DNA of 52,092 nucleotides from Escherichia phage flopper, in sequence record NC_048845.1; one strand, given 5' to 3'. A program made the translations under genes and the position numbers. The notes under the pieces were generated by a model. It was not told where the DNA came from. It searched no databases and worked only from the letters and a program-made list of their open reading frames with translations. Below are positions 25,101 through 52,092 of the stretch, piece after piece (position 1 is the first letter of the stretch; every line of letters starts with the position of its first letter).

Positions 25101-25924
25101 CCAAGTGGTAGTCCAGATGCGTTAAGAGGTGCACGAGGATGCGCAATGCCAGAAACAATTGAAGGAGAACCAATCTGAGGGAGTGCATCCATGTAAGAAA
25201 TATGTGGGGCCGATTTATTTCCTACATTAGATGCGGATGTATACCCAACTTCCTTAAAGGCTGAGGGTAACTCTCGTTCCAGACGTTTGGCAACTCGACT
25301 AATGTCTCTTGCGTATTGTTCATGATTGCTGTATTGCTCACGGTCAACATACATGTGAGCCATGTAGTTATAGGAGTCAGCAATGTTTCCACGGTTGGTG
25401 GAGTATTCTGCCATAATATCCCCAGCATAGTGACCTGGGATTTCTGGCATAATGTCTTGATGCCCTTGCAAAGTATCTCGCATATAGGCATTAAGCATGT
25501 TGAAGTTACCTTGCGGTAAGTTCGGATTTGGCTTCGGCATGTGCATCCACACATCATCTGTGCTAACGCCAAGCCTTTCCATGTATGCGTGAACAGCTTC
25601 TACATGGTGTGATGGGCCATTCATTGCTGCATGAAATGCTTCTGTGTAGCCAGCACTTGAAAGCACTTGTGCAATGTGGGCAGCGTCTGAAATCATGGAA
25701 GAGTCACCCAAAGATTCAGTAATCAAACTGTCATCTTCGAACGACCCACCCATTAATTCTGCATTTGTATCCAGCCATCCCGAAGCAGCGCTCGCACTAA
25801 GTTGTTGAACCATGTGCGACTTCTTCATACCAGCATGGAAAGTCAGACCGCTTTGAGAGCCTAATGCAATTAACTCATTAACGCTCAACTTCATTAAATC
25901 TTTTTGATTAGCCATTGTCTTCAT
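22199..25924 (-). CDS. tape-measure-like multi-domain virion protein (nuclease + hydrophobic segment + SLT lytic transglycosylase)
   Basis: 1241 aa in the tape-measure position; aa ~460-575 QEWLDFRKNYDITGSTVGTFLGNNPY...SPDGLIGDDAIWEHK (YqaJ/lambda-exo-like); aa ~780-860 Gly/Ala-rich hydrophobic stretch; aa ~1055-1160 ESGGREYN...GIMQILPSTA...YY (SLT-like). Confidence 0.7.
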   Translation of the reverse strand: MKTMANQKDLMKLSVNELIALGSQSGLTFHAGMKKSHMVQQLSASAASGWLDTNAELMGGSFEDDSLITESLGDSSMISDAAHIAQVLSSAGYTEAFHAAMNGPSHHVEAVHAYMERLGVSTDDVWMHMPKPNPNLPQGNFNMLNAYMRDTLQGHQDIMPEIPGHYAGDIMAEYSTNRGNIADSYNYMAHMYVDREQYSNHEQYARDISRVAKRLERELPSAFKEVGYTSASNVGNKSAPHISYMDALPQIGSPSIVSGIAHPRAPLNASGLPLGSYGSGINPEYSLTASLTGGTGWSAPSKALYSSISEAVKSAAKVYSGSKGMLNTRHEVSDRDMIIDSATRYTDLEEARSGYENLRSELADEPAYSASSVRAILENTYDKMDAEPVRIPKMKGASQRVDKDSLSTSTDFTAQLGEATNWNSARMRREELAIANMDSAGFRDVSDYGTGRSKSPVRFHDLEQGSQEWLDFRKNYDITGSTVGTFLGNNPYTRPWAGMIDKIGLSRSKEHSDFTKKMFADGHRTEEEARARVSKEFGFDIKQTGAITNDNYPAFMYSPDGLIGDDAIWEHKNPQRAGKFADLLKGDHPDYMDQIQFGMHVSGRSRALFSQTINDETRSQWIEKDEGWYERNRNRLDSVLGRLDAGREFVRNNAGLGREELIAGARSAMTGDGIWKDIRQKSTRGYSAVAGTPEDPFIGSRSSYNPEASYSDYKPNFVLHEQNFPATTGNGDTGNDSMALSVKKGILAAQEENRQKGIGADADFDGKADSMGWNRERFDAANGGGYSGGGGGRGGNFTSGGNYYDDYGRMGGSLAAGIAGGSIGSATNGVMQALMATPAGRMAAVGIGAIQIGNEAAEYMNDFIGNSLDAGVINPNEYSSMSQGLEMLGLNSQQAARLNQTTHSAYNTMLNGDPSAAVNIVRGSRGLLTIGDIRATGGDPVALARIMQERGKERGWSQARIAGAAEMAGLNGMARAYDRTEYSHEQAGSVVEAGRNSDFAEGMAQSEMLQGSRARMLPSYNVPQSVLSNGASVFEAGSDALDGVRTGLNKTREFAGNVYDFIAQEESGGREYNKDGSRVTSPTGARGIMQILPSTARDPGFGIRPSDGTPEDDARVGREYYDAMYKRYGDHEKAMAAYTDGPGTVDKAVDKNGLDWLTAVPVQAQNRVKAFREWSKSSQSLEEGATGFTRNGMSYGQTQTVVNVKIDAKVNNQTASATVAIPGGQTVTQQMNMNNGAQQRR

Positions 25925-26542
25925 CTACTGGTTCGAGTTTCTTACGCAAATCGAGAATGTCGTGGAATAGCAATAAGTCCATAATCGAATAGGTTCCATC
26001 TTGCAACTCATGTAGCTTGCAGAGAGAACTGTCTTCGATTATAGGACGATGCAGAAAATATTTTATGTCGGGGAACAGGGATACTAAACTGTCTCCGGAC
26101 TCGAATTCTTCTGCTCTGCCAGCTTGGATGCTTCCTCCGCCTCCAATCGTCTCTGTTCGTTGATTTCGAGCCCTTGCTTGAAAAAATCAAGGAAGTTTGC
26201 TTCGAGCACGAAAGCAAAGACATGGCAAGACAACATCAATTCGCCATTGAACTGCATATCATATAATGCAGGTTTGATTTCTTGTCCATCTATGGACGAG
26301 TGCATGCTGATAACACGCTTAAACAATTCTGTGAATACGGTATGCTCTACTTGCTGCATCAAGTATATAATATCAGCGAAGTTATATTTACCTTCGATGA
26401 ATGGAAATACTCGTGAGCCTAACTTGCTTACCAACTCCGCGTGAAGAGACAGTGCAGCCGAAGCCGACAATTGTCGAACAACGACTAACACTGTTTCGCC
26501 TTTGGAGTTTGTGAATTCACGTTGAAGCAATTCACAAGCCAT
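25908..26542 (-). other. predicted -1 frameshift-extended tail chaperone product
   Basis: Slippery T TTT TTC at 26180..26186 in the zero frame; the -1 frame is open for 89 codons to TAA at 25908..25910, ending just inside the tape-measure start (25924). Confidence 0.5.
26084..26542 (-). CDS. tail assembly chaperone (zero-frame product)
   Basis: 152 aa between the tube and tape-measure genes; contains an in-frame T_TTT_TTC slippery heptamer. Confidence 0.6.
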   Translation of the reverse strand: MACELLQREFTNSKGETVLVVVRQLSASAALSLHAELVSKLGSRVFPFIEGKYNFADIIYLMQQVEHTVFTELFKRVISMHSSIDGQEIKPALYDMQFNGELMLSCHVFAFVLEANFLDFFKQGLEINEQRRLEAEEASKLAEQKNSSPETV

Positions 26543-30213: not shown

Positions 30214-31221
30214 TCAGATGCCGGAGTTGATAGAGATTGCTGCCGGATACATCGCTTGGAAGCCAGCAAAACGACCACGGCCAGGAACTTCATAAACCAG
30301 ACCATGAAGCTGTACCGGTTGCCAGGTCAGCGGCAGAGGTTCACGCAGACGGAAAGTGCGGTTGCCCATTGCATTGCGGCAAACAACAACGAAGCAATCA
30401 GAGCCAGCATCGCCGTGACCTTTGATTGCGTTCAGACCCTTGATTTTATCGCGGGAGTTGATGAACTGGTTGTTGTCAATGAAGAATTGACCAATCGTCT
30501 TATCAGACTGCTCAGAACGTGCAGTGTTGAAGATGTACTGCTCATGCTCAACAGGCATCCAGATTTCGTCTGGGCGCATGATTTTCAGAGTGGAAGCATA
30601 CATTGCAGACACAGCAGTGGTCAGGTCAGCAATAACTTCGGTCGGAGTCTTCTCGGCCCACTTGGTAGAACCCCCAGCACCAGCAGCAACAGTTGCTTTG
30701 GTAATGTCTGGGTTTTCGAAGAAGCCAACAAAGCCGTTAGCTTTATCGCCGTACCATGCAGCAGAGTTAACATACTGCTCGTAACCACGAATAGCAGCAT
30801 TTGCTTTGCGAGTTTCCAGCGGGAGGCCAGTAACAGCAGCGGATGCCACTTCATCAATATCGTAGTCGAATGCAGTACCAACAGATTTAACAGGGATACT
30901 GTATTCTTTACCAGAAATGCTGGACTTCGGCAGGTCGGTTGCACGGGCGTTAATTACCTGAGCTTTACCAACATGGTTGTAAGAACGGTAGGTAAGAGTG
31001 TTTACGCCAGCACCACCAGTAGTGTCCACACCGAAAGCAGCACGAGCTTCCAGTTCTGGATACAGAGTGTCGTAAGTTTGAGCTTCAATGTGCTCAAGCT
31101 GGCGTTGAAAGAATACTGCATCGTCGTCATTCAGGACAACAGTGCCAGAATCCTGAATACGGGTGATAGCGTCGTTCAGTTCGAATTCAGAACCGTCCGC
31201 CAGTTTAATCATCTTAGGCAT
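30214..31221 (-). CDS. major capsid protein
   Basis: ~335 aa between the decoration/Ig genes and the neck genes; start set to ATG 31221 (the track ORF starts at TTG 31254). Confidence 0.65.
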   Translation of the reverse strand: MPKMIKLADGSEFELNDAITRIQDSGTVVLNDDDAVFFQRQLEHIEAQTYDTLYPELEARAAFGVDTTGGAGVNTLTYRSYNHVGKAQVINARATDLPKSSISGKEYSIPVKSVGTAFDYDIDEVASAAVTGLPLETRKANAAIRGYEQYVNSAAWYGDKANGFVGFFENPDITKATVAAGAGGSTKWAEKTPTEVIADLTTAVSAMYASTLKIMRPDEIWMPVEHEQYIFNTARSEQSDKTIGQFFIDNNQFINSRDKIKGLNAIKGHGDAGSDCFVVVCRNAMGNRTFRLREPLPLTWQPVQLHGLVYEVPGRGRFAGFQAMYPAAISINSGI

Positions 31222-31276
31222 GTAAATTAATCCGTTTTGTTTGGTGGGGCGCAACTATTAATTGCGCCATCACAAC

Positions 31277-31705
31277 TTAAGACTTCGGCGTAATAGCAAT
31301 CTCTTTAGTTGCAGTCACGCTGGAGGTTGTTTTGTTTGTTGCCTTAACCGTGGCAGAGGTATCGGTAGTTGTCTCATTTAAGACGGTTACAGTACCATTT
31401 GCAGCCACAGAAACGCCAGTCACAGGAGGCGTAATAGCGTAGGTGTAGTCTGTTGCTGTAGAGTTACCAAACTTAAACAGTTTGTCTACAGTTACAGTGG
31501 CATCAGTAGAAGACGCATCAGCCGTTACAACTCCATCTACAGCAGACACCGTAGGTGCAGGAGGCTTAGGCTTAATCGTAATCTGTTTGGATGCAGTTAC
31601 GCCAGACTCTGTTTTATTTGTTGCCTTGATTGTCGCAGAAGTGGCTGTAGTCGTTGCACTGAGTACAGTCACAGTGCCGTTTGCCGCCACAGAAACACCA
31701 GTCAC
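31277..31705 (-). CDS. Ig-like (BIG-type) tandem-repeat domain protein
   Basis: Two near-identical ~48-aa repeats (VTGVSVAANGTVTVL...ATNKT...) with a third copy upstream in the same frame, open to 31870 without ATG/GTG/TTG. Confidence 0.55.
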   Translation of the reverse strand: MTGVSVAANGTVTVLSATTTATSATIKATNKTESGVTASKQITIKPKPPAPTVSAVDGVVTADASSTDATVTVDKLFKFGNSTATDYTYAITPPVTGVSVAANGTVTVLNETTTDTSATVKATNKTTSSVTATKEIAITPKS

Positions 31706-31851
31706 GGGAGGTGTAACAGCGAAGTTATAATCTGTTGCCGCAGAGTTCTCAAACTTAAACAGTTTGTCTACAGTTACAGTTGCATCAGAGGCAGATGCGT
31801 CCGCAGTTAAAGCCCCTGCAACAGCAGATACTGTAGGAGCTGGAGGTGGCG

Positions 31852-32325
31852 TTACGGCTTTGGGACTACGTTAATCATGACCGGGACAACATCACCAGCG
31901 GAAGCCGGATAACGCAGGGCAGTCAGGTTGGTTGCTTTAGTATAACCAGCACCAACGCCACCAAATTCACCTTTAGTGGATACGCCGATGTTCTTGTCGG
32001 TGATTGCGGTTTTCAGTTTGACCATGATTGGGCCAGACAGCATAACACCCAGGGGCCAGCCAACTTTAATAGCAACAGTGCCGTCACCAGGACGAGTAGC
32101 AGATTCGATGTTAAGCTGGCGCATGGTAATGCCCAGAACAGTGCCGTCAGCCTCAATACCAGGCTTAACCTGATTAGAAGCCGTGCCTTGAACAACAGCC
32201 AGACCAAAGTTTGCCATTTCTTCTTCGGCAACGTAAGTCAGGCGCTGGGAGTTGGTGGTAGCCAGGCCATATTGTTCACCTGCATATGCTTCACCAGTAT
32301 TAATAGACCAATCTTGCTTTGGCAT
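31852..32325 (-). CDS. head decoration / accessory capsid protein (zero-frame product)
   Basis: 157 aa ending ...VVPKP with slippery C_CCA_AAG two codons before the stop. Confidence 0.5.
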   Translation of the reverse strand: MPKQDWSINTGEAYAGEQYGLATTNSQRLTYVAEEEMANFGLAVVQGTASNQVKPGIEADGTVLGITMRQLNIESATRPGDGTVAIKVGWPLGVMLSGPIMVKLKTAITDKNIGVSTKGEFGGVGAGYTKATNLTALRYPASAGDVVPVMINVVPKP

Positions 32326-32334
32326 TGTCTTACC

Positions 32335-33399
32335 TTATAAAGAGTTGAAGCGTTCTAAACGACGTTTGTTAGCTTCTTCGGAAATAGAAACTTTAGGTTT
32401 ACGAGCTTCTGAATCTTTCTTAGCAGCGAATTGCATAGACTGATTCAGGGCATCTCCTAAAGTAATGGAATCGCAATCTTCAAGAGCTGCATCGAAACGG
32501 GCGGAGATATAGTCTTCGCTCTTATCGCTGAAATCCTTGTCATGCAATTTATTAACTACAGCCAACTTAATTTCTGCATCGGTCTTGCCGGAGAAATCTA
32601 GGTTGGAGAACTCGTCGCCAAGACGGGCCACATCAACAAGCAATGCTGTACGAGCAACTACACGTTTGTCTACCTCAGCCTGAATGGCTTCATCGGATAG
32701 TCGTGCAGTTTCTGCATCAGCAAGTTTCTGCTCAAGGACACTAATCTTGTCAAGCGCTGCATCACGCTCTGCTTCAACAACGTCAAAGGTTGCCTTATCA
32801 ACAATGGCAATCTCTTCACCAGAGTCACCAATGCGAGTAGTCTGAGCACGACCACGAACAACAATTGCAGCATGGTTAGGGATAATGCGGACTTTATCGA
32901 AGTCGGCTTCATCATCTTCTGATACAGCCAGTTCAGCATTATGGCCCAAGGAGATTTGGTCAACACCAGAATCAACTAATCGAATAGCTTGCTCGTCATT
33001 CAAAACGATTGACGCAGCCAAGAAAGAACCGTCTGCAACTGGACGCCCTTCGATGAACCCTTTCTGGAGTTCTTTGTTGTTCTTGATGTTAACATCATTT
33101 TTCGGATGGCCGATAGTAACCGGAATTGAACGACAGCCTTCGATGGTTGCTTCGTCAAATAATACTTCCGGCTTGGTACGAACACGGCAAATAGATTCTG
33201 GGTCCAGATGTTTTGCAATTTCACCAAGTTCTTTAGCCTTGTACAGCATGATGCCGGTACGGGCGATGGTGCATTCTGCAATCATTTCGCCAGAGTCACG
33301 TAAACGACGGGTCGTTAAAGTAGCCTTGTCGTTCAACAAAACTACTTCATTCACGGTATCTTCGTCGTTAAGCTGAACCAGGTTTTGGTTTTGCTTCAC
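32335..33399 (-). CDS. scaffolding / prohead-protease-like protein
   Basis: Acidic coiled-coil C-terminal half; start uncertain (GTG 33399 with AAGGG RBS, or ATG 33285); the ORF to 33576 would overlap the portal by ~200 nt. Confidence 0.45.
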   Translation of the reverse strand: MKQNQNLVQLNDEDTVNEVVLLNDKATLTTRRLRDSGEMIAECTIARTGIMLYKAKELGEIAKHLDPESICRVRTKPEVLFDEATIEGCRSIPVTIGHPKNDVNIKNNKELQKGFIEGRPVADGSFLAASIVLNDEQAIRLVDSGVDQISLGHNAELAVSEDDEADFDKVRIIPNHAAIVVRGRAQTTRIGDSGEEIAIVDKATFDVVEAERDAALDKISVLEQKLADAETARLSDEAIQAEVDKRVVARTALLVDVARLGDEFSNLDFSGKTDAEIKLAVVNKLHDKDFSDKSEDYISARFDAALEDCDSITLGDALNQSMQFAAKKDSEARKPKVSISEEANKRRLERFNSL

Positions 33400-34684
33400 T
33401 TGCGTTACCCTTTTGGATGTTAGGAGGATTAGGATTTGGTTTGCCAAGGTCACAAGTTCCGAACACGCCCGAATGGAACATGACTTCGTTTGCAACTTCG
33501 GTAGTAATAGTACCGTTGTTAACCAGTAGGTCAACAGCAAATGCCAAATCTTTAGCTCGCTTCGCTTTCTCAACATTGGATTCAGGGAAGATATCTAACC
33601 ATTCGTAGTCATATTCTTCAATGCCAAAGTGCGCTTGGACAATCTTGTCTACCACATCTAAACGAGGGTCGAACACAGAAGTCTGCAAGCCTGTCAACAA
33701 GTCGATATAGTTTACGAGGTCAGATTCGCCCGTAGCATTCATACCGTCTGGAGATGCAGAAAGGAAACGTGTAGCCGGAATACCAACTGCGGCAGCAACT
33801 ATCTTCAAGTATTCCCAAATCAAATCTTTCACACCAGATAGTGCAATTGACTTGGTGTCATACTTCTCAGTATTGTCGAGAATTAAGACGTTATAAATAC
33901 TCTTTGCCAGCTTCATAAGTTTGAAGCGCTTCATCACAGCAGCTTCACCTTCCGGTGATGTAAGCAGAGATTGTAAGCCTTCAACAGTTACCACATCAAT
34001 GGTGGCTTCCTGAGCAAGGCTGGCAGCAGCAGCAGCAGTTGTATAGAATTGGTCAATCGTTTTCAGCAGTGGAATAAGTACCGAATCGGAATACCACATG
34101 TTACGTTGGAATTCAAACAGTGGCAGTTCAGTACCCTCGAACCGAAGAAAGCGAGTGTAGTGGATATAGCCGGGATACCCAGCCAAAGTGTAATACTCTG
34201 GCAAACCATAGTGAGGACTCAAAGGGTCCAGAACCATAGTTCCTGCGGCAAATAAGCGTGAGCGGTCAATAACTCTCATGGATTTAATACATCCAGTCTT
34301 CAAGTTATCCAGACGCAATGGTGTATCAAGTTTACCCGTACCTTTTAGGTCGAGCAGAACAAATGAAGTCCCATACAATCTGGCCCATTGATATGCCTCA
34401 CGGAACAGCTTACGAATACGAAGTTTCTTATCCGCTTTGCGTCCTTCTTCACTATCAATATGTCGCCACTTACGCGTCATATCTTGAGGAATAACGGTAC
34501 ACACTTTCTGTGCCACCCAATCCTCACGGAAGCGGTTCATAAGTTCGCGATAGTTCGCGTTCTTGTTTGAGAAAGTCCACTGGTTAAAAGTAGACTTATC
34601 TGCCTGACCGCCCAACCCCGTTACAAGGTTTTCTAACCCATCTGCAACTTTAACAGAAAGATTGTTTTTCTTCTTGGAAGTCAT
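33368..34684 (-). CDS. portal protein
   Basis: 438 aa immediately downstream of the terminase large subunit. Confidence 0.7.
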   Translation of the reverse strand: MTSKKKNNLSVKVADGLENLVTGLGGQADKSTFNQWTFSNKNANYRELMNRFREDWVAQKVCTVIPQDMTRKWRHIDSEEGRKADKKLRIRKLFREAYQWARLYGTSFVLLDLKGTGKLDTPLRLDNLKTGCIKSMRVIDRSRLFAAGTMVLDPLSPHYGLPEYYTLAGYPGYIHYTRFLRFEGTELPLFEFQRNMWYSDSVLIPLLKTIDQFYTTAAAAASLAQEATIDVVTVEGLQSLLTSPEGEAAVMKRFKLMKLAKSIYNVLILDNTEKYDTKSIALSGVKDLIWEYLKIVAAAVGIPATRFLSASPDGMNATGESDLVNYIDLLTGLQTSVFDPRLDVVDKIVQAHFGIEEYDYEWLDIFPESNVEKAKRAKDLAFAVDLLVNNGTITTEVANEVMFHSGVFGTCDLGKPNPNPPNIQKGNASEAKPKPGSA

Positions 34685-34908
34685 TATTTCTTCCTTAGAA
34701 TAGTTCCATTACCCTTAACAATTTGAATGTTGTCGGAGGTGTGGAGTCGCAGATTTGACTCGTGCTTTAACTTAACACAGTCGCTCTCTGTGGTAGAAAC
34801 TGCCTCAACCACGCACAAAATGTTTCCTTCCAAATCTTGAATCTGGAAGGAATTGTTCTTGCGTGAGCGGGCATCTAATCGAGTGATAACCGCCATATTT
34901 ACATCCAT
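34684..34908 (-). CDS. hypothetical protein
   Basis: 74-aa ORF between terminase and portal. Confidence 0.4.
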   Translation of the reverse strand: MDVNMAVITRLDARSRKNNSFQIQDLEGNILCVVEAVSTTESDCVKLKHESNLRLHTSDNIQIVKGNGTILRKK

Positions 34909-36944
34909 GCGGAGTAGTTGGCACTTGGGCCAGAGAATTCGATTGCAACCATATCTGAAACGTTATCGACACAATCGTCGTGTCCAGTACCACTACCCAA
35001 AGAAGTGAATCCAAGTATTTCACGTCTAACATGGTCAATGTGTTCATGACCAGCAGGGAAGAATATTCTCTTTTGCGAGAAATATGGGATTGCGTTAAGG
35101 AATCGAGTTACCTTGTCATTACCATTGATGCCATCACGAGGCAGCGGTAAAACTCGGACACTCCCATCTCTAATAAATTGTTGATTCAAGAATTGTCCAG
35201 CAGACTTGTCTTCCATGTACAGTGCACGAGGAATACAACCTACACACTTCAAATCCAACTTGTTGCATTTGTTCCAGAAGTCGATGATAGCAGTCTTGAG
35301 TTCTGGAGTTTCGAACTTACCGAGCATAATATCTAAACAATAAACATCACGCTCTTTAGTCACGCCCCAATGCTTAAGGACCGAATAATCAGAATAGGAT
35401 TTGGCAGTTGATGCCGTATCCGCTGTAATAAAACTTCTGACTATGCGACTTCTGTCGAAAACGTCTGGTTCATACTCTTGCCACCAATCTTCTTTGATAA
35501 GGCCGTGGCCTTGTGCAGATGGGTCGCCAGCATACTGTGAATTGTATGTATATGGGTTAGACTCTTTCATTGCCTCCAGAGATTCTAAACTCTTACGTGA
35601 AGGCCATAATGCAGACTTCTCTTCCTTCCTGTTCAAATTGTACAGAATGGGAATAGCATGAGTGTAGTTCTGCTTCTTGATTAACTTATCATACCATTCA
35701 GCACTTCCAACGCCCTTCTCAATAATCGCTGGGATATTGAGATAATGGTATTTGTCGGAAGAGCCGCCACGGAGTATGTAACCAACTAAATCCTGGTCAT
35801 GAACTCGCTGCATGATGATAACCATTGGTGTACGGGCACACTTAATTTGGTTTCCGTACGAATCAGTTATGCAACCATCGTTGGCAAGACGGGACATAAA
35901 GGTGTTATCAAATCGGTCGTTGATTTCTGCTCGAACTGTGTCAGAGTAGGCATCTTTTGGTTTGATAACGTCATCCACCACGAAACAACCGGAGTATTTT
36001 GCAACAAGAAGTCCAGCACCTTTACCAGTCAGCTTACCACCAGTAGGTACTGCGTGCATAACTCCAGCTTTGGTTGTACCCCAGCGCTCAAGTGAACGTT
36101 TGTTGGGGTCGATTCTCACCTTCGGAAATATGCGTTGGAACAGTGGGTCCATCATTACAGCACGGATGTAACCACTCGATTCAAGAACAACGTCTTCTGC
36201 ATACGAGGTGATAATGTTATGGCTTGATTCATTGTGGCAAAATGAATACAAGGGCAATGCAATACTCATGAGCTGAGTCTTAGAGTGTCGTGGAGGAATG
36301 GTCACTATTAAGCGGTCAATCTCACCATCAACAACCTTTTGACCAACACTGAATATTACATCGTGAAAGTCTTGTGCTTGAAATGGAAATCCCATCTGAA
36401 TATGGAACTGCCATTTACCAAAGGCTTCGAAACTTTTCATCAAGATTTTGCGAACACGCTCTGCAACCTTGGCAGGGATTACAGTTGGGTCCACATTGTG
36501 TGGGTCATGCAGAATCTTGTCTACAAGTTCCTCGGTGTTATCATGCTCCGAGTTTGGCTCCTCTAATGTGGAACCTGCAACACGGTCAGTAACACCTGCT
36601 TGAATACCTTTCTTCAACTCATCTGCATAGGCAGTTGAGTCTTTCCTGTCGCCAGAGCGAAGACGCTCAAGTTGTGCTCTGAAAACGGAACGCAGTACAG
36701 CATCGTTTTCAAGACCCTGGCCTTCTAACTCTGCTTGAATTTGTTCTTCATAGCTGTCAACTATTGCAGTATTTTCTGAAATATATCGACGGAGCAATGG
36801 CAAAGATAGAATACAGAATCTTTCTCTTGAGACTTTTAATACGTCACCGTAGTGTTTGGCAAGATACGAGGCTACTGTATCATTAAACTCCGGCCCGAGG
36901 TCATCAGTCTTTGACATTGATTCGTTCTCTTTGTTTTTAATCAC
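34899..36944 (-). CDS. terminase large subunit
   Basis: 681 aa with ATPase-like region (IPPRHSKTQ) and C-terminal nuclease-like region. Confidence 0.8.
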   Translation of the reverse strand: MIKNKENESMSKTDDLGPEFNDTVASYLAKHYGDVLKVSRERFCILSLPLLRRYISENTAIVDSYEEQIQAELEGQGLENDAVLRSVFRAQLERLRSGDRKDSTAYADELKKGIQAGVTDRVAGSTLEEPNSEHDNTEELVDKILHDPHNVDPTVIPAKVAERVRKILMKSFEAFGKWQFHIQMGFPFQAQDFHDVIFSVGQKVVDGEIDRLIVTIPPRHSKTQLMSIALPLYSFCHNESSHNIITSYAEDVVLESSGYIRAVMMDPLFQRIFPKVRIDPNKRSLERWGTTKAGVMHAVPTGGKLTGKGAGLLVAKYSGCFVVDDVIKPKDAYSDTVRAEINDRFDNTFMSRLANDGCITDSYGNQIKCARTPMVIIMQRVHDQDLVGYILRGGSSDKYHYLNIPAIIEKGVGSAEWYDKLIKKQNYTHAIPILYNLNRKEEKSALWPSRKSLESLEAMKESNPYTYNSQYAGDPSAQGHGLIKEDWWQEYEPDVFDRSRIVRSFITADTASTAKSYSDYSVLKHWGVTKERDVYCLDIMLGKFETPELKTAIIDFWNKCNKLDLKCVGCIPRALYMEDKSAGQFLNQQFIRDGSVRVLPLPRDGINGNDKVTRFLNAIPYFSQKRIFFPAGHEHIDHVRREILGFTSLGSGTGHDDCVDNVSDMVAIEFSGPSANYSAWM

Positions 36945-38899: not shown

Positions 38900-39647
38900 A
38901 ACTTTCCTCACTTTTGTCTGCACGTAAACGAACGAGTGACGGGAACCGGAACTTACCAGCTTCTGTCTTCTCACGATACCGAACTTGCATAATCGAACCA
39001 ACTAGCTCGTGGCGATGTTCCCACAACCACTTACGAATCAATGTGTTAGATTCTGGAACACCGTGGTCTGCCAGGCAATCTTTCACCATTGAGCCAGCAC
39101 TGCCGTAGTTCGAGGAGATAGAACCACACATACCTTTAAGAGCACCAGTACCTTCTTTCATACCAGTAATCTTAACATCGGCGTATTTATATGGTACAAT
39201 CTTCCACCACTTACCTTTTGCATCACGGACAATGATACCTTCATGACCAAGCGCCAGATATTTATCCATCAATGCCTTAAGGTTTTCATTGCTTGGGTCC
39301 TTGCACCAGCCGATGTACAAGCGTGGGTCAACAGCACCATCACTCAACTCATAAACGTTTTCTTGCGATAACGGTATGGTCGGAGGGTCGATACGCCCAA
39401 GGATAGATGAAGTCTCGTTCCAGGAACCGCGAAAGATTTCTGCATCTTTAAATTTGAGATGGTCACAGTGAGGGAGAGGTTTAGAGTTGCGGCTCCATAC
39501 CTCACCAGAAGCATTACGAATCGCTCGTATGCCGTCAATTTTGATGTACAATTCACATCGACCACGAATAAGACAGTTTGGGTCTTCCCAGTCATGTGCG
39601 TGAGCCTTTGTATATCTTGTACCGTCAGCGAGGAGCTTAATAGACAT
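38892..39647 (-). CDS. ATP-dependent DNA ligase (small phage type)
   Basis: 251 aa with adenylation motif I KIDGIR and EGIIVR/WWKI-type downstream motifs. Confidence 0.7.
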   Translation of the reverse strand: MSIKLLADGTRYTKAHAHDWEDPNCLIRGRCELYIKIDGIRAIRNASGEVWSRNSKPLPHCDHLKFKDAEIFRGSWNETSSILGRIDPPTIPLSQENVYELSDGAVDPRLYIGWCKDPSNENLKALMDKYLALGHEGIIVRDAKGKWWKIVPYKYADVKITGMKEGTGALKGMCGSISSNYGSAGSMVKDCLADHGVPESNTLIRKWLWEHRHELVGSIMQVRYREKTEAGKFRFPSLVRLRADKSEESFD

Positions 39648-50844: not shown

Positions 50845-51171
50845 TTAGTGGCCTTGTAGGATACGTTTGTTCGCAGTTTCTGCGTCGATTCCCAAATCAA
50901 CTAATGTCACCAAGCACTGCGAAATCCGCTCTTGCGCAGCTTTCTCCAGAATTTGGTATTTTTCGTTGTCAACGCCTAACACATTCTTGGCATGAATGAG
51001 TGTAGCCATTAGACCATGACCCAAAGCAACAGCTTGCATTGCCTGGAGTTCAAAGTTAATTGTGATTCCAGCGAGTTCGTGCTCTTTCTGGATAATCTCA
51101 ATCAACTCTTCTTTGGATTTGTCTTGTAAGTTCAAAATGGAACTCCGTAAATCGGTTGGTTTGTTGTCCAA
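50845..51171 (-). CDS. hypothetical early protein
   Basis: 108-aa ORF. Confidence 0.45.
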   Translation of the reverse strand: MDNKPTDLRSSILNLQDKSKEELIEIIQKEHELAGITINFELQAMQAVALGHGLMATLIHAKNVLGVDNEKYQILEKAAQERISQCLVTLVDLGIDAETANKRILQGH

Positions 51172-51452
51172 TTGCGAGTTGCGATTTGCATGGACTTGTT
51201 TGGGCCGTAGTAGAAATATTTCTTAACTTCGGCAAGGGTGTAGTTGGCACTGCTTTCCAGCAACTCCTTGAAGGTGTGTTTCCAGAATCCGTCTTTCTCA
51301 GACAGACTTACGTGGAAAGAATTAGTGCCGTTATAGTACCAACGCCCACCAACGAGAACGAAGTGGATTGTTTCTTCCTCTCCTTCCCCACTTGAAGGTA
51401 ACATTAGGACATTTCTCAACGTCAAAACTTTAGCAGAATGCTTGCGAATCAT
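51132..51452 (-). CDS. hypothetical early protein (start moved to internal ATG with GGAGA RBS)
   Basis: ATG at 51452 is preceded by GGAGAGTTCCT; the longer ORF to 51590 has no RBS. Confidence 0.45.
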   Translation of the reverse strand: MIRKHSAKVLTLRNVLMLPSSGEGEEETIHFVLVGGRWYYNGTNSFHVSLSEKDGFWKHTFKELLESSANYTLAEVKKYFYYGPNKSMQIATRNWTTNQPIYGVPF

Positions 51453-52092
51453 AGGAACTCTCCAATTTTTCGATTCAGTGTTTGTGACTTCTCTTCTCAT
51501 CTTTTGGCCAGGAACAGGCCACAGGGTAGCGCAGGAAGGCCGAAAATCGGGCCGCTGCCTACCGTTTGTGTCAATTCTGGATAACTGCATTGGTGAAGGG
51601 TTACTCCCGTTAGGGGTGCGATACGCTAATCACATGAGTGTCGTCGCCTTGCGGCTCAGGCGTGTCACAGAGGCTTTGCAACCCTTCCCAATACATTCAC
51701 CCAATCCACCTGCTTTGGCATAGCTGGTGGCGCGGTTTTGTGCGGATTATGCCACTCTAAGCCCTGTTTGTCCGACTTCCTCAGAGCACCAGCAGCTTGT
51801 GGCACAAACCTATTTTCGAATGACTAACATAAGCATGAGGCATTACCCTCTAATTATTCAGCCCTAACAGCTTGCTTATTTAGTTCCAATTCATCCCAAT
51901 ACATCGCCTATAACAAGTGAATAGCTTTTCTGCGAATAAGTATTCCGGCCCTTTGGCCTATGTTAAAAGATAAATGTATATGATGGAAACATTCCATCTG
52001 AAAGCAAACTAACTTCCCACAGGCATCGAACCTGTAATCCAGTGTAGATTTCTACACGAAGCAGTTTGCTTACACGATGTTGTCTCTTCAAT

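Follow-up and report, generated by a model that had tools for sequence, protein, structure and literature searches.

The window analysed here, the whole 52,092-nucleotide stretch of Escherichia phage flopper (NC_048845.1), carries a 157-aa open reading frame (32325-31852, minus strand) whose final codons read GTC CCA AAG CCG TAA. The original prediction took this to be the gene of a head protein that ends beside a slippery heptamer, C_CCA_AAG, at 31858-31864, from which a -1 frame without an early start of its own would stay open for about 195 codons, to 31277. Direct reading confirmed the coordinates of the ORF, the codons quoted for its 3' end, and the X_XXY_YYZ register of the heptamer relative to the zero frame, within the overlap of both frames. 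The -1 frame, which begins PKAVTPPPAPTV, is indeed open from 31864 for 195 sense codons (196 with the stop) and closes with the stop at 31279-31277. The features of the locus are the following:

31852-32325, minus strand: cement/decoration protein gene, zero-frame ORF (157 aa, 16.4 kDa)
31871-31873, minus strand: TAA closing the -1 frame two codons 5' of the heptamer, the 5' limit of the shift window
31858-31864, minus strand: slippery heptamer C_CCA_AAG (P-site CCA, A-site AAG), identical in 17 other loci from several genera
31852-31854, minus strand: zero-frame stop TAA, 3 nt past the heptamer, bounding the shift window on its 3' side and possibly acting as a stimulator
31828-31857, minus strand: Pro/Ala-rich linker AVTPPPAPTV, in the -1 frame
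31811-31841, minus strand: hairpin of doubtful role
31559-31840, minus strand: Ig-like domain 1, in the -1 frame, delimited by the 94-aa period and the AF2 model, with no start codon before the middle of the domain
31703-31705, minus strand: first in-frame GTG, inside domain 1, the start of the 142-aa ORF annotated in databases
31280-31558, minus strand: Ig-like domain 2, in the -1 frame, delimited by the period and the AF2 model and followed by the stop at 31277-31279
30214-31221, minus strand: major capsid protein gene (Pfam PF09950, E=1.1e-48), directly downstream, in the same order in all relatives

The 157-aa protein is the capsid cement/decoration protein of a Carltongylesvirus, so that the label of head protein was borne out and can be made more precise. 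It matched Pfam PF22758 (Phage_cement) over residues 4-152 of 157, with 64.3 bits (cut-off 27; E=1.8e-17), and PHROG 563, a virion structural protein. A phmmer search of the PDB with the single cement sequence gave no match and a profile was required; the profile search with the cement family recovered 8HDT_G, 'Cement', at E=2.2e-15. The AlphaFold (AF2) model of the protein (pLDDT 84.6) matched this same Pam3 chain at a TM of 0.72, and also T1 9KZJ, XM1 7KMX, E217 8FRS and phi29 gp8.5 6QYY. The gene is flanked by those of the prohead protease/scaffold and of the major capsid protein, the placement expected for Phage_cement, and the order DUF2213 protease, cement, (Ig), major capsid was the same in the window and in all its relatives.

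The -1 frame had been read as three tandem Ig-like units of about 48 aa each, and this part of the prediction did not hold. Offset self-comparison of the -1 ORF revealed a single strong period of 94 aa (282 nt), with 73% identity, seen in both protein and DNA. At an offset of 47 aa the identity was only 20%, in a sequence rich in T, A and V, and Tandem Repeats Finder reported no repeat in the region. The AF2 model of the -1 ORF, built separately from that of the cement part, reached a pLDDT of 95.1 and contains two beta-sandwiches of nine predicted beta-strands each, those of domain 1 spanning residues 11-98. Self-comparison and model thus both indicate two domains of 94 aa. With the Ig part, Foldseek retrieved tandem Ig-like, cadherin, invasin and LdtMt2 domains, with E around 1e-5, and the -1 ORF matched PHROG 13745, 'Ig domain containing protein' (E=6.6e-12). 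None of the Pfam Ig families (Big_2, I-set, fn3) matched it at E<=0.1, a sub-threshold match to Rpf1_C being the only one seen. The two domains are Ig-like by predicted fold, and their sequence family is absent from Pfam. Related repeats adjoin Big_2 in metagenomic proteins, and the same type of domain is found in-frame within other phage capsid proteins. Relatives with a single domain, SKA49, ST32 and GJ1 among them, lack domain 2.

Because the -1 frame is closed upstream by the TAA at 31873-31871, any shift is confined to 16 nt, 31870-31855, and C_CCA_AAG is the sole slippery motif in that interval. The heptamer count in the window as a whole (six observed, 6.7 expected) is not unusual by itself. 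A scan of every window ORF of 80 aa or more found in-frame heptamers whose -1 frame runs at least 40 codons past the ORF stop at five sites in four ORFs; among these five, only the heptamer of the cement gene lies fewer than 20 codons from its stop (one codon), and it also has the longest -1 extension, 191 codons. It is therefore position and conservation, not occurrence alone, that make the heptamer significant. Of the -1 heptamers in E. coli, C_CC.A_AA.G ranks first in efficiency (PMC4066793).

Conservation of the slippery site in related phages, one of the checks suggested with the original prediction, was analysed in 22 loci, the window included, with a -1 ORF, 98 codons long or longer, lying between the cement gene and that of the major capsid protein. 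In 22/22 of them, the cement gene closes with NNA_AAG and, zero or one codon later, a stop. The exact C_CCA_AAG is kept across genera, in 18 loci, the rest having G_GCA_AAG, G_TTA_AAG, G_GTA_AAG or A_GTA_AAG, and in four loci the P-site codon is unable to re-pair well. The motif was found in none of the seven relatives without the extra ORF (Spp001, pAh6-C, VPs20 and L025-L028), although this 22-versus-0 count overstates the independent observations because the compared loci are mutually related. Behind the site we recognised at least four unrelated types of -1 cassette: that of the window, a 'PYTYxWKK' Ig_2/I-set type, and those of SNUABM27 and L019. Though the cassettes differ between genera, all share one frame (-1) and one preceding shift site, and similar Pro/Ala-rich linkers stand 3' of the site in relatives with unrelated cassettes. 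Of 86 metagenomic homologues of the cement protein, about 68 have a C-terminus of the form ...PK or ...PKX, with variable preceding residues.

All 132 clusters of cement homologues are 124-187 aa long and have no in-frame extension. Neither the 86 close homologues nor the 46 representative clusters included a natural cement-Ig fusion in one frame, so that the pairing of the two parts is without 'Rosetta stone' confirmation. The matches of a homology search with the full fusion, which was dominated by low-complexity words, were limited to five multi-repeat Ig proteins, none of them a fusion. A joined CDS is annotated in 0/18 related GenBank records examined, and our search of the literature on frameshifting or virion proteomics in Chaseviridae/Carltongylesvirus found nothing relevant and no report of this frameshift.

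In the 83 nt past the zero-frame stop, 9/27, 8/28 and 26/28 sites are variable at the first, second and third positions of the -1-frame codons, respectively. This third-position excess sets in directly after the zero-frame stop and is the pattern of the remaining Ig region and of the cement gene. The first ATG, GTG or TTG of the -1 ORF is the GTG at codon 54, in the middle of domain 1, so that the region indeed has no early start, and the -1-frame tryptic peptide AVTPPPAPTVSAVAGALTADASASDATVTVDK is encoded upstream of any possible one. There is no ATG in the Ig ORFs of the 13 window-type loci examined, where the first GTG is found anywhere between codons 12 and 58 and is not conserved, and where gene callers choose differing starts. 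Judged by these patterns, the -1 ORF appears to be coding and to have no initiation signal of its own. The original prediction had staked itself on a heptamer that is conserved in relatives and an Ig region that lacks a separate start in them, and this is what we found.

A downstream stimulatory structure had also been suggested as a check, and several folds and an RNAalifold analysis gave no canonical or conserved one. The minimum free energy fold of an 88-nt fragment (-26 kcal/mol for the whole fragment; z=-1.3) contains the hairpin at 31811-31841, which starts 16-17 nt past the heptamer, versus the usual 5-9 nt. The hairpin is found in Carltongylesvirus relatives with one compensatory change (ACAG/CUGU to ACCG/CGGU, in PYps16N and MLP1), which is too little to build on, and it has no family-wide consensus: RNAalifold on 13 relatives gave a weak one of -8.1 kcal/mol with a covariation term of +0.26, that is, no covariation support. 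There is no Shine-Dalgarno-like sequence upstream of the heptamer. The 8-nt block AACGCCAC after the stop, invariant in 12 window-type relatives, was considered and rejected as a stimulator; it is lost in the loci with other cassettes. Because a promoter/terminator scan of 31100-32500 found no signals, the 'terminator' annotated over the hairpin in SA91KD is without consensus support. The missing stimulator lowers the efficiency to be expected and does not exclude the shift. A stimulator is not obligatory for frameshifting, lambda G-T being an example. In E. coli reporters, heptamers without a stimulator reached at most about ten times the 0.055% background (PMC4066793), so the yield of the fusion could be very low. 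The nearby zero-frame stop may help frameshifting.

We consider it highly likely that a -1 slip at C_CCA_AAG gives a minority of the cement copies an Ig-like tail, short and long forms of one capsid-surface protein being made. This was the core of the original prediction, and the conservation of the site and the missing starts support it. The majority of ribosomes would stop at the UAA and produce the 16.4-kDa cement protein, and a minority would slip back one base with tRNA-Pro and tRNA-Lys on the CCA_AAG of C_CCA_AAG and go on in the -1 frame, reading the proline-rich linker and then the two Ig-like beta-sandwich domains. The expected product would be a fusion of 349 aa and 35.4 kDa, with the junction ...VVPK-AVTPPPAPTV..., which would dock via its cement moiety and provide some cement positions on the head with flexible Ig-like projections. 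The projections might be weak carbohydrate or surface adhesins, as an analogy with Ig-like domains of other phages suggests.

Could the Ig ORF instead be translated alone, from the internal GTG (31705) or by re-initiation past the cement stop, yielding a free Ig protein? Gene calls in GenBank/UniProt do contain separate small ORFs (142 aa in flopper, 164 aa in SA91KD, 70 aa in ST32 and 90 aa in Y2), and GTG codons are present in the Ig frame. However, a start at GTG 31705 falls in the middle of domain 1 and would give a product with half a beta-sandwich; the sequence preceding it, ACACCTCCC, has no Shine-Dalgarno motif or similar purine run; and the first GTG shifts its place even among close relatives. 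Moreover, no ORF is annotated there in the records of GJ1, SKA49, PP101, SNUABM27 and Farigoule, the region 5' of every start evolves as -1-frame coding sequence, and a free Ig domain would be without an evident capsid anchor. We regard independent translation as very unlikely. The notion that the Ig region is an untranslated relic, once an in-frame extension of the C-terminus that a 1-nt indel disrupted and that has been decaying since, fits with the lack of protein evidence and of any in-frame fusion seen today. It is hard to reconcile with a frame that is open for 98-195 codons in 22 loci despite up to about 45% cement divergence, with the strong excess of third-position variation, or with the independent gain of different cassettes in the same frame; the 282-nt duplication that is still intact and the pLDDT of 95 of the Ig-part model also speak against decay, and we find a relic extremely improbable.

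A frame offset of one base where a gene ends looks like a classic indel error, but the same offset is present in 21 independently obtained sequences, isolate genomes and metagenome contigs together, which argues against a sequencing or assembly artefact. As for transcriptional rather than ribosomal slippage, slippage of RNA polymerase is known from long A/T runs and is unlikely at this site, whose longest runs, three C and three A, are too short. In addition, the heptamer is tightly enclosed in all loci by a -1 stop on its 5' side and a zero-frame stop on its 3' side. We give next to no credence to these two origins of the offset. On the evidence set out above, independent initiation, a pseudogene, sequencing error and transcriptional slippage were all rejected.

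Beyond the ribosomal frameshift proposed for the window, a broader reading can be put forward tentatively, as possible rather than probable. The end of the cement gene in Cleopatravirinae would be a conserved, structure-independent 'docking' frameshift site, with the stop as stimulator, at which unrelated display cassettes are swapped and duplicated by recombination. The site in that reading may take the form A_AAG, usually C_CCA_AAG, zero to one codon before the stop. If the 'docking' reading is true, these phages would possess a natural, tunable, low-copy platform for capsid display on a decoration protein.

The kind of system is already known, and the very probable frameshift Ig tail on this cement protein would be a new case of it. 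If true, the records of a whole phage subfamily need correction, since they list the -1 ORFs, if at all, as small 'hypothetical' or 'Ig domain' ORFs whose starts are arbitrary. These phages are therapy candidates against pathogenic E. coli, Yersinia, Erwinia and Pectobacterium, and Ig-like projections on the head may influence adhesion to mucus or cell surfaces, hence persistence and host encounter. A display site of naturally low copy number at the C-terminus of a decoration protein would offer a handle for phage display. Finally, a top-ranked heptamer beside a stop, present in many genomes and with no visible RNA stimulator, would be a clean case for the contribution of the stop to bacterial -1 frameshifting.

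Frameshifting is a known route by which C-terminal Ig-like domains are added to phage structural proteins, as in the T3 capsid 10A/10B, the major head protein of Lactobacillus phage A2, and the Listeria phages A118, A500 and PSA (PMC5009743). As proposed here, a minority of ribosomes shift near the gene end in these phages, giving a short major and a long minor form, and their Ig modules are exchanged between phages, landing behind frameshift sites (PMC5009743). Unlike in those phages, the Ig-like tail here would be borne by a small cement/decoration protein (PF22758) and not by a major capsid or tail tube protein; the shift site is zero to one codon away from the stop, one conserved site preceding several unrelated cassettes across the subfamily; and the folds gave no stimulatory structure. 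Frameshift-appended Ig-like domains on phage structural proteins were reportedly described by Fraser et al. (2006, J Mol Biol 359:496), who are also reported to have sorted phage Ig-like domains into BIG2, I-set and FN3 classes.

The heptamer belongs to the same class as the X_XXA_AAG cassettes of E. coli (dnaX A_AAA_AAG; IS3/IS911), and copA is said to use C_CCA_AAG (Meydan et al. 2017). This class exploits the single tRNA-Lys(UUU) of E. coli, which pairs better with AAA than with AAG (PMC5009743, PMC4066793). In the E. coli cassettes the stimulator is defined and consists of a hairpin or pseudoknot 5-9 nt 3' of the heptamer, of a Shine-Dalgarno sequence 5' of it, or of both, whereas here none is demonstrable. 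[quoted passage not shown]

Among beta-tulip cement proteins, gp24 of E217 forms trimers on the three-fold and quasi-three-fold axes (PMC10329688). By sequence and predicted fold, the 157-aa part groups with this protein and the other members of that type (Pam3 gp6, T1, XM1 gp53), and with phi29 gp8.5. The phi29 head fibre protein gp8.5 has such a base, with an outward C-terminal part forming the fibre, and we know of no recoding-added C-terminal extension either in these beta-tulip examples or in gp8.5. T4 Hoc and T5 pb10 likewise join a capsid-binding module to Ig-like domains on the head, for which weak glycan adhesion has been proposed. Both are encoded in a single frame and have a fixed stoichiometry, whereas in the phages analysed here the level of display would depend on the efficiency of the frameshift.

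The region belongs to Carltongylesvirus (family Chaseviridae, subfamily Cleopatravirinae), and its nearest record in the phage collection search was vB_EcoM_SA91KD (96% identity). Its minus strand carries, in order, the large terminase, the portal, a DUF2213 prohead protease/scaffold, a 157-aa ORF (here the cement gene), an ORF in its -1 frame (the -1 ORF) and the major capsid protein:

34899-36944, minus strand, large terminase
33368-34684, minus strand, portal
32325-31852, minus strand, 157-aa ORF with the 3' end GTC CCA AAG CCG TAA
31864-31858, minus strand, heptamer C_CCA_AAG in X_XXY_YYZ register
30214-31221, minus strand, major capsid protein

Judged from its sequence and predicted structure, the 157-aa protein is a capsid cement (decoration) protein. 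It matched the Pfam family Phage_cement (E217 gp24 / Pam3 gp6) with 64.3 bits, the cut-off being 27, and its homologue profile matched the 'Cement' chain of the Pam3 capsid structure 8HDT (E=2.2e-15). The AlphaFold model (pLDDT 84.6) matched the decoration proteins of the T1, Pam3 (TM 0.72), FCWL1, HFTV1, XM1, Sf11, TW1 and E217 capsids, as well as the capsid-binding base of the phi29 head fibre gp8.5. In the E217 capsid the homologue is arranged as beta-tulip trimers, which sit on three-fold and quasi-three-fold axes (PMC10329688).

As the original prediction had it, the 157-aa ORF ends with an in-register C_CCA_AAG at 31864-31858, and the -1 frame stays open from there for about 195 codons to 31277, or exactly 195 sense codons, beginning PKAVTPPPAPTV, and a stop at 31279-31277. 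Since a TAA at 31873-31871 blocks the -1 frame two codons 5' of the heptamer, a productive frame change is confined to the 16 nt at 31870-31855, where the heptamer is the only slippery motif. By itself the heptamer is unremarkable (6 copies in the window, 6.7 expected). We scanned all window ORFs of at least 80 aa for in-frame heptamers with a -1 frame running at least 40 codons beyond the ORF stop. Five sites, in four ORFs, were found; the cement site alone lay within 20 codons of its stop (1 codon), and its extension was the longest (191 codons). The scan also returned C_CCA_AAC at 51198-51204 (ORF 51132-51590, minus strand; extension of 95 codons) and T_TTA_AAG / A_AAT_TTA at 39446-39455 (ORF 39344-39595, minus strand; 150 codons), both far from the ORF ends; these two ORFs, both short, may be spurious and overlap real genes that lie in a different frame.

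Conservation of the slippery site, which had been proposed as a check, was found when the junction was compared across 18 relatives from GenBank and 10 contigs from metagenomes. In 22 loci, the window among them, a -1 ORF of 98 codons or longer lies between the cement gene and the capsid gene, and in all 22 the cement gene ends in NNA_AAG followed by the stop directly or one codon later. The heptamer is C_CCA_AAG in 18/22, covering Carltongylesvirus, Suwonvirus, Faunusvirus, Sabourvirus, Loessnervirus and three metagenomic lineages. The other four have G_GCA_AAG (Myduc), G_TTA_AAG, G_GTA_AAG or A_GTA_AAG; the A_AAG tetramer is retained in all of them, and tRNA-Lys in the A site can slip on it by itself. 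Across the 22 loci the -1 frame opens only 2-47 codons 5' of the heptamer, and the +1 frame is shut soon past the stop of the cement (zero) frame. Seven relatives lack the -1 ORF (the Nefertitivirinae phages Spp001, pAh6-C and VPs20 and four contigs, L025-L028); there the cement gene runs directly up to the capsid gene, and none has a terminal A_AAG (0/7), a 22-to-0 split that comes from related loci in a phylogenetically structured sample and does not amount to 29 independent trials. Two of these contigs have cement genes (L027 1501-2007, L028 1501-2034) ending in ...AK (GCC AAG TAA) or ...PK (CCT AAA TAA) after a short zero-frame tail, acidic or Ala-rich, and these ends may be remnants of a lost frameshift site. 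In addition, ...PK or ...PKX is the C-terminus of about 68 of the 86 metagenomic cement homologues, which are 53-98% identical. The residue before this varies (V, L, G, A, S, I, T), each with a C-ending codon available, which matters because the heptamer needs a C there; the codons were checked at the nucleotide level in the ten contigs compared.

The lack of a start for the first Ig copy was also confirmed. No ATG occurs in the Ig ORFs of the 13 loci examined with the window-type domain, and the position of the first GTG or TTG ranges between codons 12 and 58 and is unconserved even between phages 96% identical, which explains the scatter of annotated ORFs in this region (43, 70, 83, 90, 142 or 164 aa, or none). 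In the window the earliest and sole candidate is a GTG at 31705 (codon 54), inside domain 1, preceded by ACACCTCCC and lacking a Shine-Dalgarno sequence. We then counted variable sites by codon position in an alignment of 12 relatives. In the 83 nt just past the zero-frame stop, 9/27, 8/28 and 26/28 of -1-frame positions 1, 2 and 3 vary, with 28/68, 25/68 and 64/68 in the remaining Ig region and 9/20, 8/20 and 18/20 for the cement gene in its own frame. This coding pattern, starting right at the zero-frame stop, indicates that -1-frame translation begins at the junction and is supplied only by ribosomes arriving from the cement gene. Independent initiation of the Ig ORF fails as an explanation: conserved starts and a Shine-Dalgarno sequence are absent, the product would hold a truncated domain, and the stretch 5' of every start evolves as coding.

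The other alternatives fare no better. That the Ig region is a decaying relic is contradicted by its open frames, periodic variation, repeatedly replaced cassettes and confident predicted fold. A sequencing error as the source of the frame offset is excluded by the same offset in 21 independently sequenced loci, and transcriptional slippage is unlikely on runs of three bases only. Site conservation, the missing starts and the -1 coding signature thus support frameshifting as the best account of Ig expression, as originally suggested.

An 8-nt block just past the zero-frame stop, AACGCCAC (window 31842-31851), is invariant in the 12 window-type relatives, including two third-codon positions, in a stretch where 26/28 third positions vary, and is lost in loci with other cassettes. 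The CACCUCC after it is identical, not complementary, to the 16S rRNA 3' tail. This feature may be a coincidence with Pro codons or a local cis element.

The extension did not prove to be three tandem units of ~48 aa: the sole strong period is 94 aa (282 nt, 73% identity), and the 47-aa offset gives only 20% identity, in Thr/Ala/Val-rich sequence. AlphaFold modelled the -1 ORF as two tandem beta-sandwich domains (pLDDT 95.1), resembling tandem Ig-like, cadherin, invasin and LdtMt2 domains. It has no match to a Pfam Ig family and matches PHROG 13745 ('Ig domain containing protein'); on its predicted fold, it is Ig-like. A 142-aa flopper protein (BFVD entry) is 100% identical to part of it. Other phage head proteins contain this domain type in frame, among them the major capsid protein of phage Paul (894 aa, 33% identity) and Ig-like proteins of SGF2 and NJ01, and metagenomic proteins with Big_2 domains have it in four or five tandem copies. 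Ig-like domains are also found in Hoc, the T3 10B extension and the lambda gpV C-terminal domain; by analogy, the Ig projections would most likely bind glycans of mucus or bacterial surfaces in a weak, multivalent way.

The window-type domain is carried by Carltongylesvirus, Y2, Faunus, 4HA13 and contig L020, in two copies in flopper, SA91KD, DE15 and JL1 and in one in most relatives. An unrelated 'GGxxPYTYxWKK' type is present in Farigoule, Myduc and contigs L021-L024 (with recorded Pfam Ig_2/Ig_3/I-set matches for L021 and L023), and SNUABM27 and L019 each have their own unrelated type. Whatever its type, the cassette follows the same site in the -1 frame and starts with a Pro/Ala-rich linker. 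Farigoule (L013 1968-2267) and Y2 (L014 1968-2273), assigned to one species, Loessnervirus Y2, share the CCCAAAG-stop junction, yet the cassettes that follow it are unrelated; this points to a recent replacement by recombination. This is the 'promiscuity' of phage Ig-like domains known from the literature, here tied to one recoding site. All 132 cement homologue clusters examined span 124-187 aa. Ig domains seem to be added to this family always by recoding, never by in-frame fusion.

In the proposed mechanism, a ribosome whose P and A sites are occupied by CCA and AAG would slip to CCC_AAA. The single E. coli tRNA-Lys pairs better with AAA than with AAG, making X_XXA_AAG the most shift-prone class (PMC4066793, PMC5009743), and C_CC.A_AA.G was the best of all 64 heptamers, with 54% frameshifting next to a strong pseudoknot (PMC4066793). 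Translation would yield the cement protein (157 aa, 16.4 kDa) and a fusion (349 aa, 35.4 kDa) of cement residues 1-156, AVTPPPAPTV... and the two Ig-like domains. Even a low fusion yield would be meaningful. By analogy with E217, which has 180 trimers on its T=9 head, roughly 420 cement subunits would be expected on a T=7 head for a genome of this size.

The anticipated downstream stimulatory structure did not emerge: no canonical stimulator was found in the upstream sequence, local folds or 13-relative consensus, and no Shine-Dalgarno-like sequence lies upstream of the heptamer. A local hairpin starts 16-17 nt past the heptamer (z-score only -1.3), recurs in Carltongylesvirus with a single compensatory change and is absent from other genera; RNAalifold on 13 relatives gave -8.1 kcal/mol and no covariation support. 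Heptamers without stimulators reach at most about ten times the 0.055% background in E. coli reporters (PMC4066793). Of the context features, only the stop, 0-1 codon past the heptamer, is invariant. Efficient -1 frameshifting in pea enation mosaic virus requires a stop placed 3 nt past the heptamer (PMC5009743), and by analogy with that closely placed stop, a slow-to-decode stop may act as the stimulator here. In the SA91KD record, a 'rho-independent terminator' is placed 10 nt past the cement stop (L001 3559-3601, window ~31800-31842) and a 'promoter' is marked inside the Ig ORF. A consensus scan of the window found neither; the 'terminator' is the local hairpin, which lies inside -1 coding sequence and has no T-run.

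The window also holds a likely second -1 frameshift, at 25911-26542 (minus strand), as read from sequence. The tail assembly chaperone gene at 26084-26542, minus strand (phrog_11820, E=2.5e-75), has an in-frame T_TTT_TTC at 26180-26186, from which the -1 frame runs 92 codons to about 25911, adjoining the tape-measure start (25924); the C-terminal part of this extension matches phrog_4364. The site resembles the canonical gpG/gpGT-type chaperone frameshift.

Frameshift-added Ig-like domains on phage structural proteins were reportedly described by Fraser et al. in 2006. Among the 18 GenBank records examined, not one has a joined CDS annotated at the cement junction, and our literature search, thin on subscription-journal papers, found no mention of a cement frameshift. 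The addition of C-terminal Ig-like domains to phage structural proteins by frameshifting is well established (PMC5009743); the type is already known, and the cement site is a well-supported case of it. New, as far as we found, are a beta-tulip cement protein as the carrier and a site conserved across a whole subfamily while its cassettes change.
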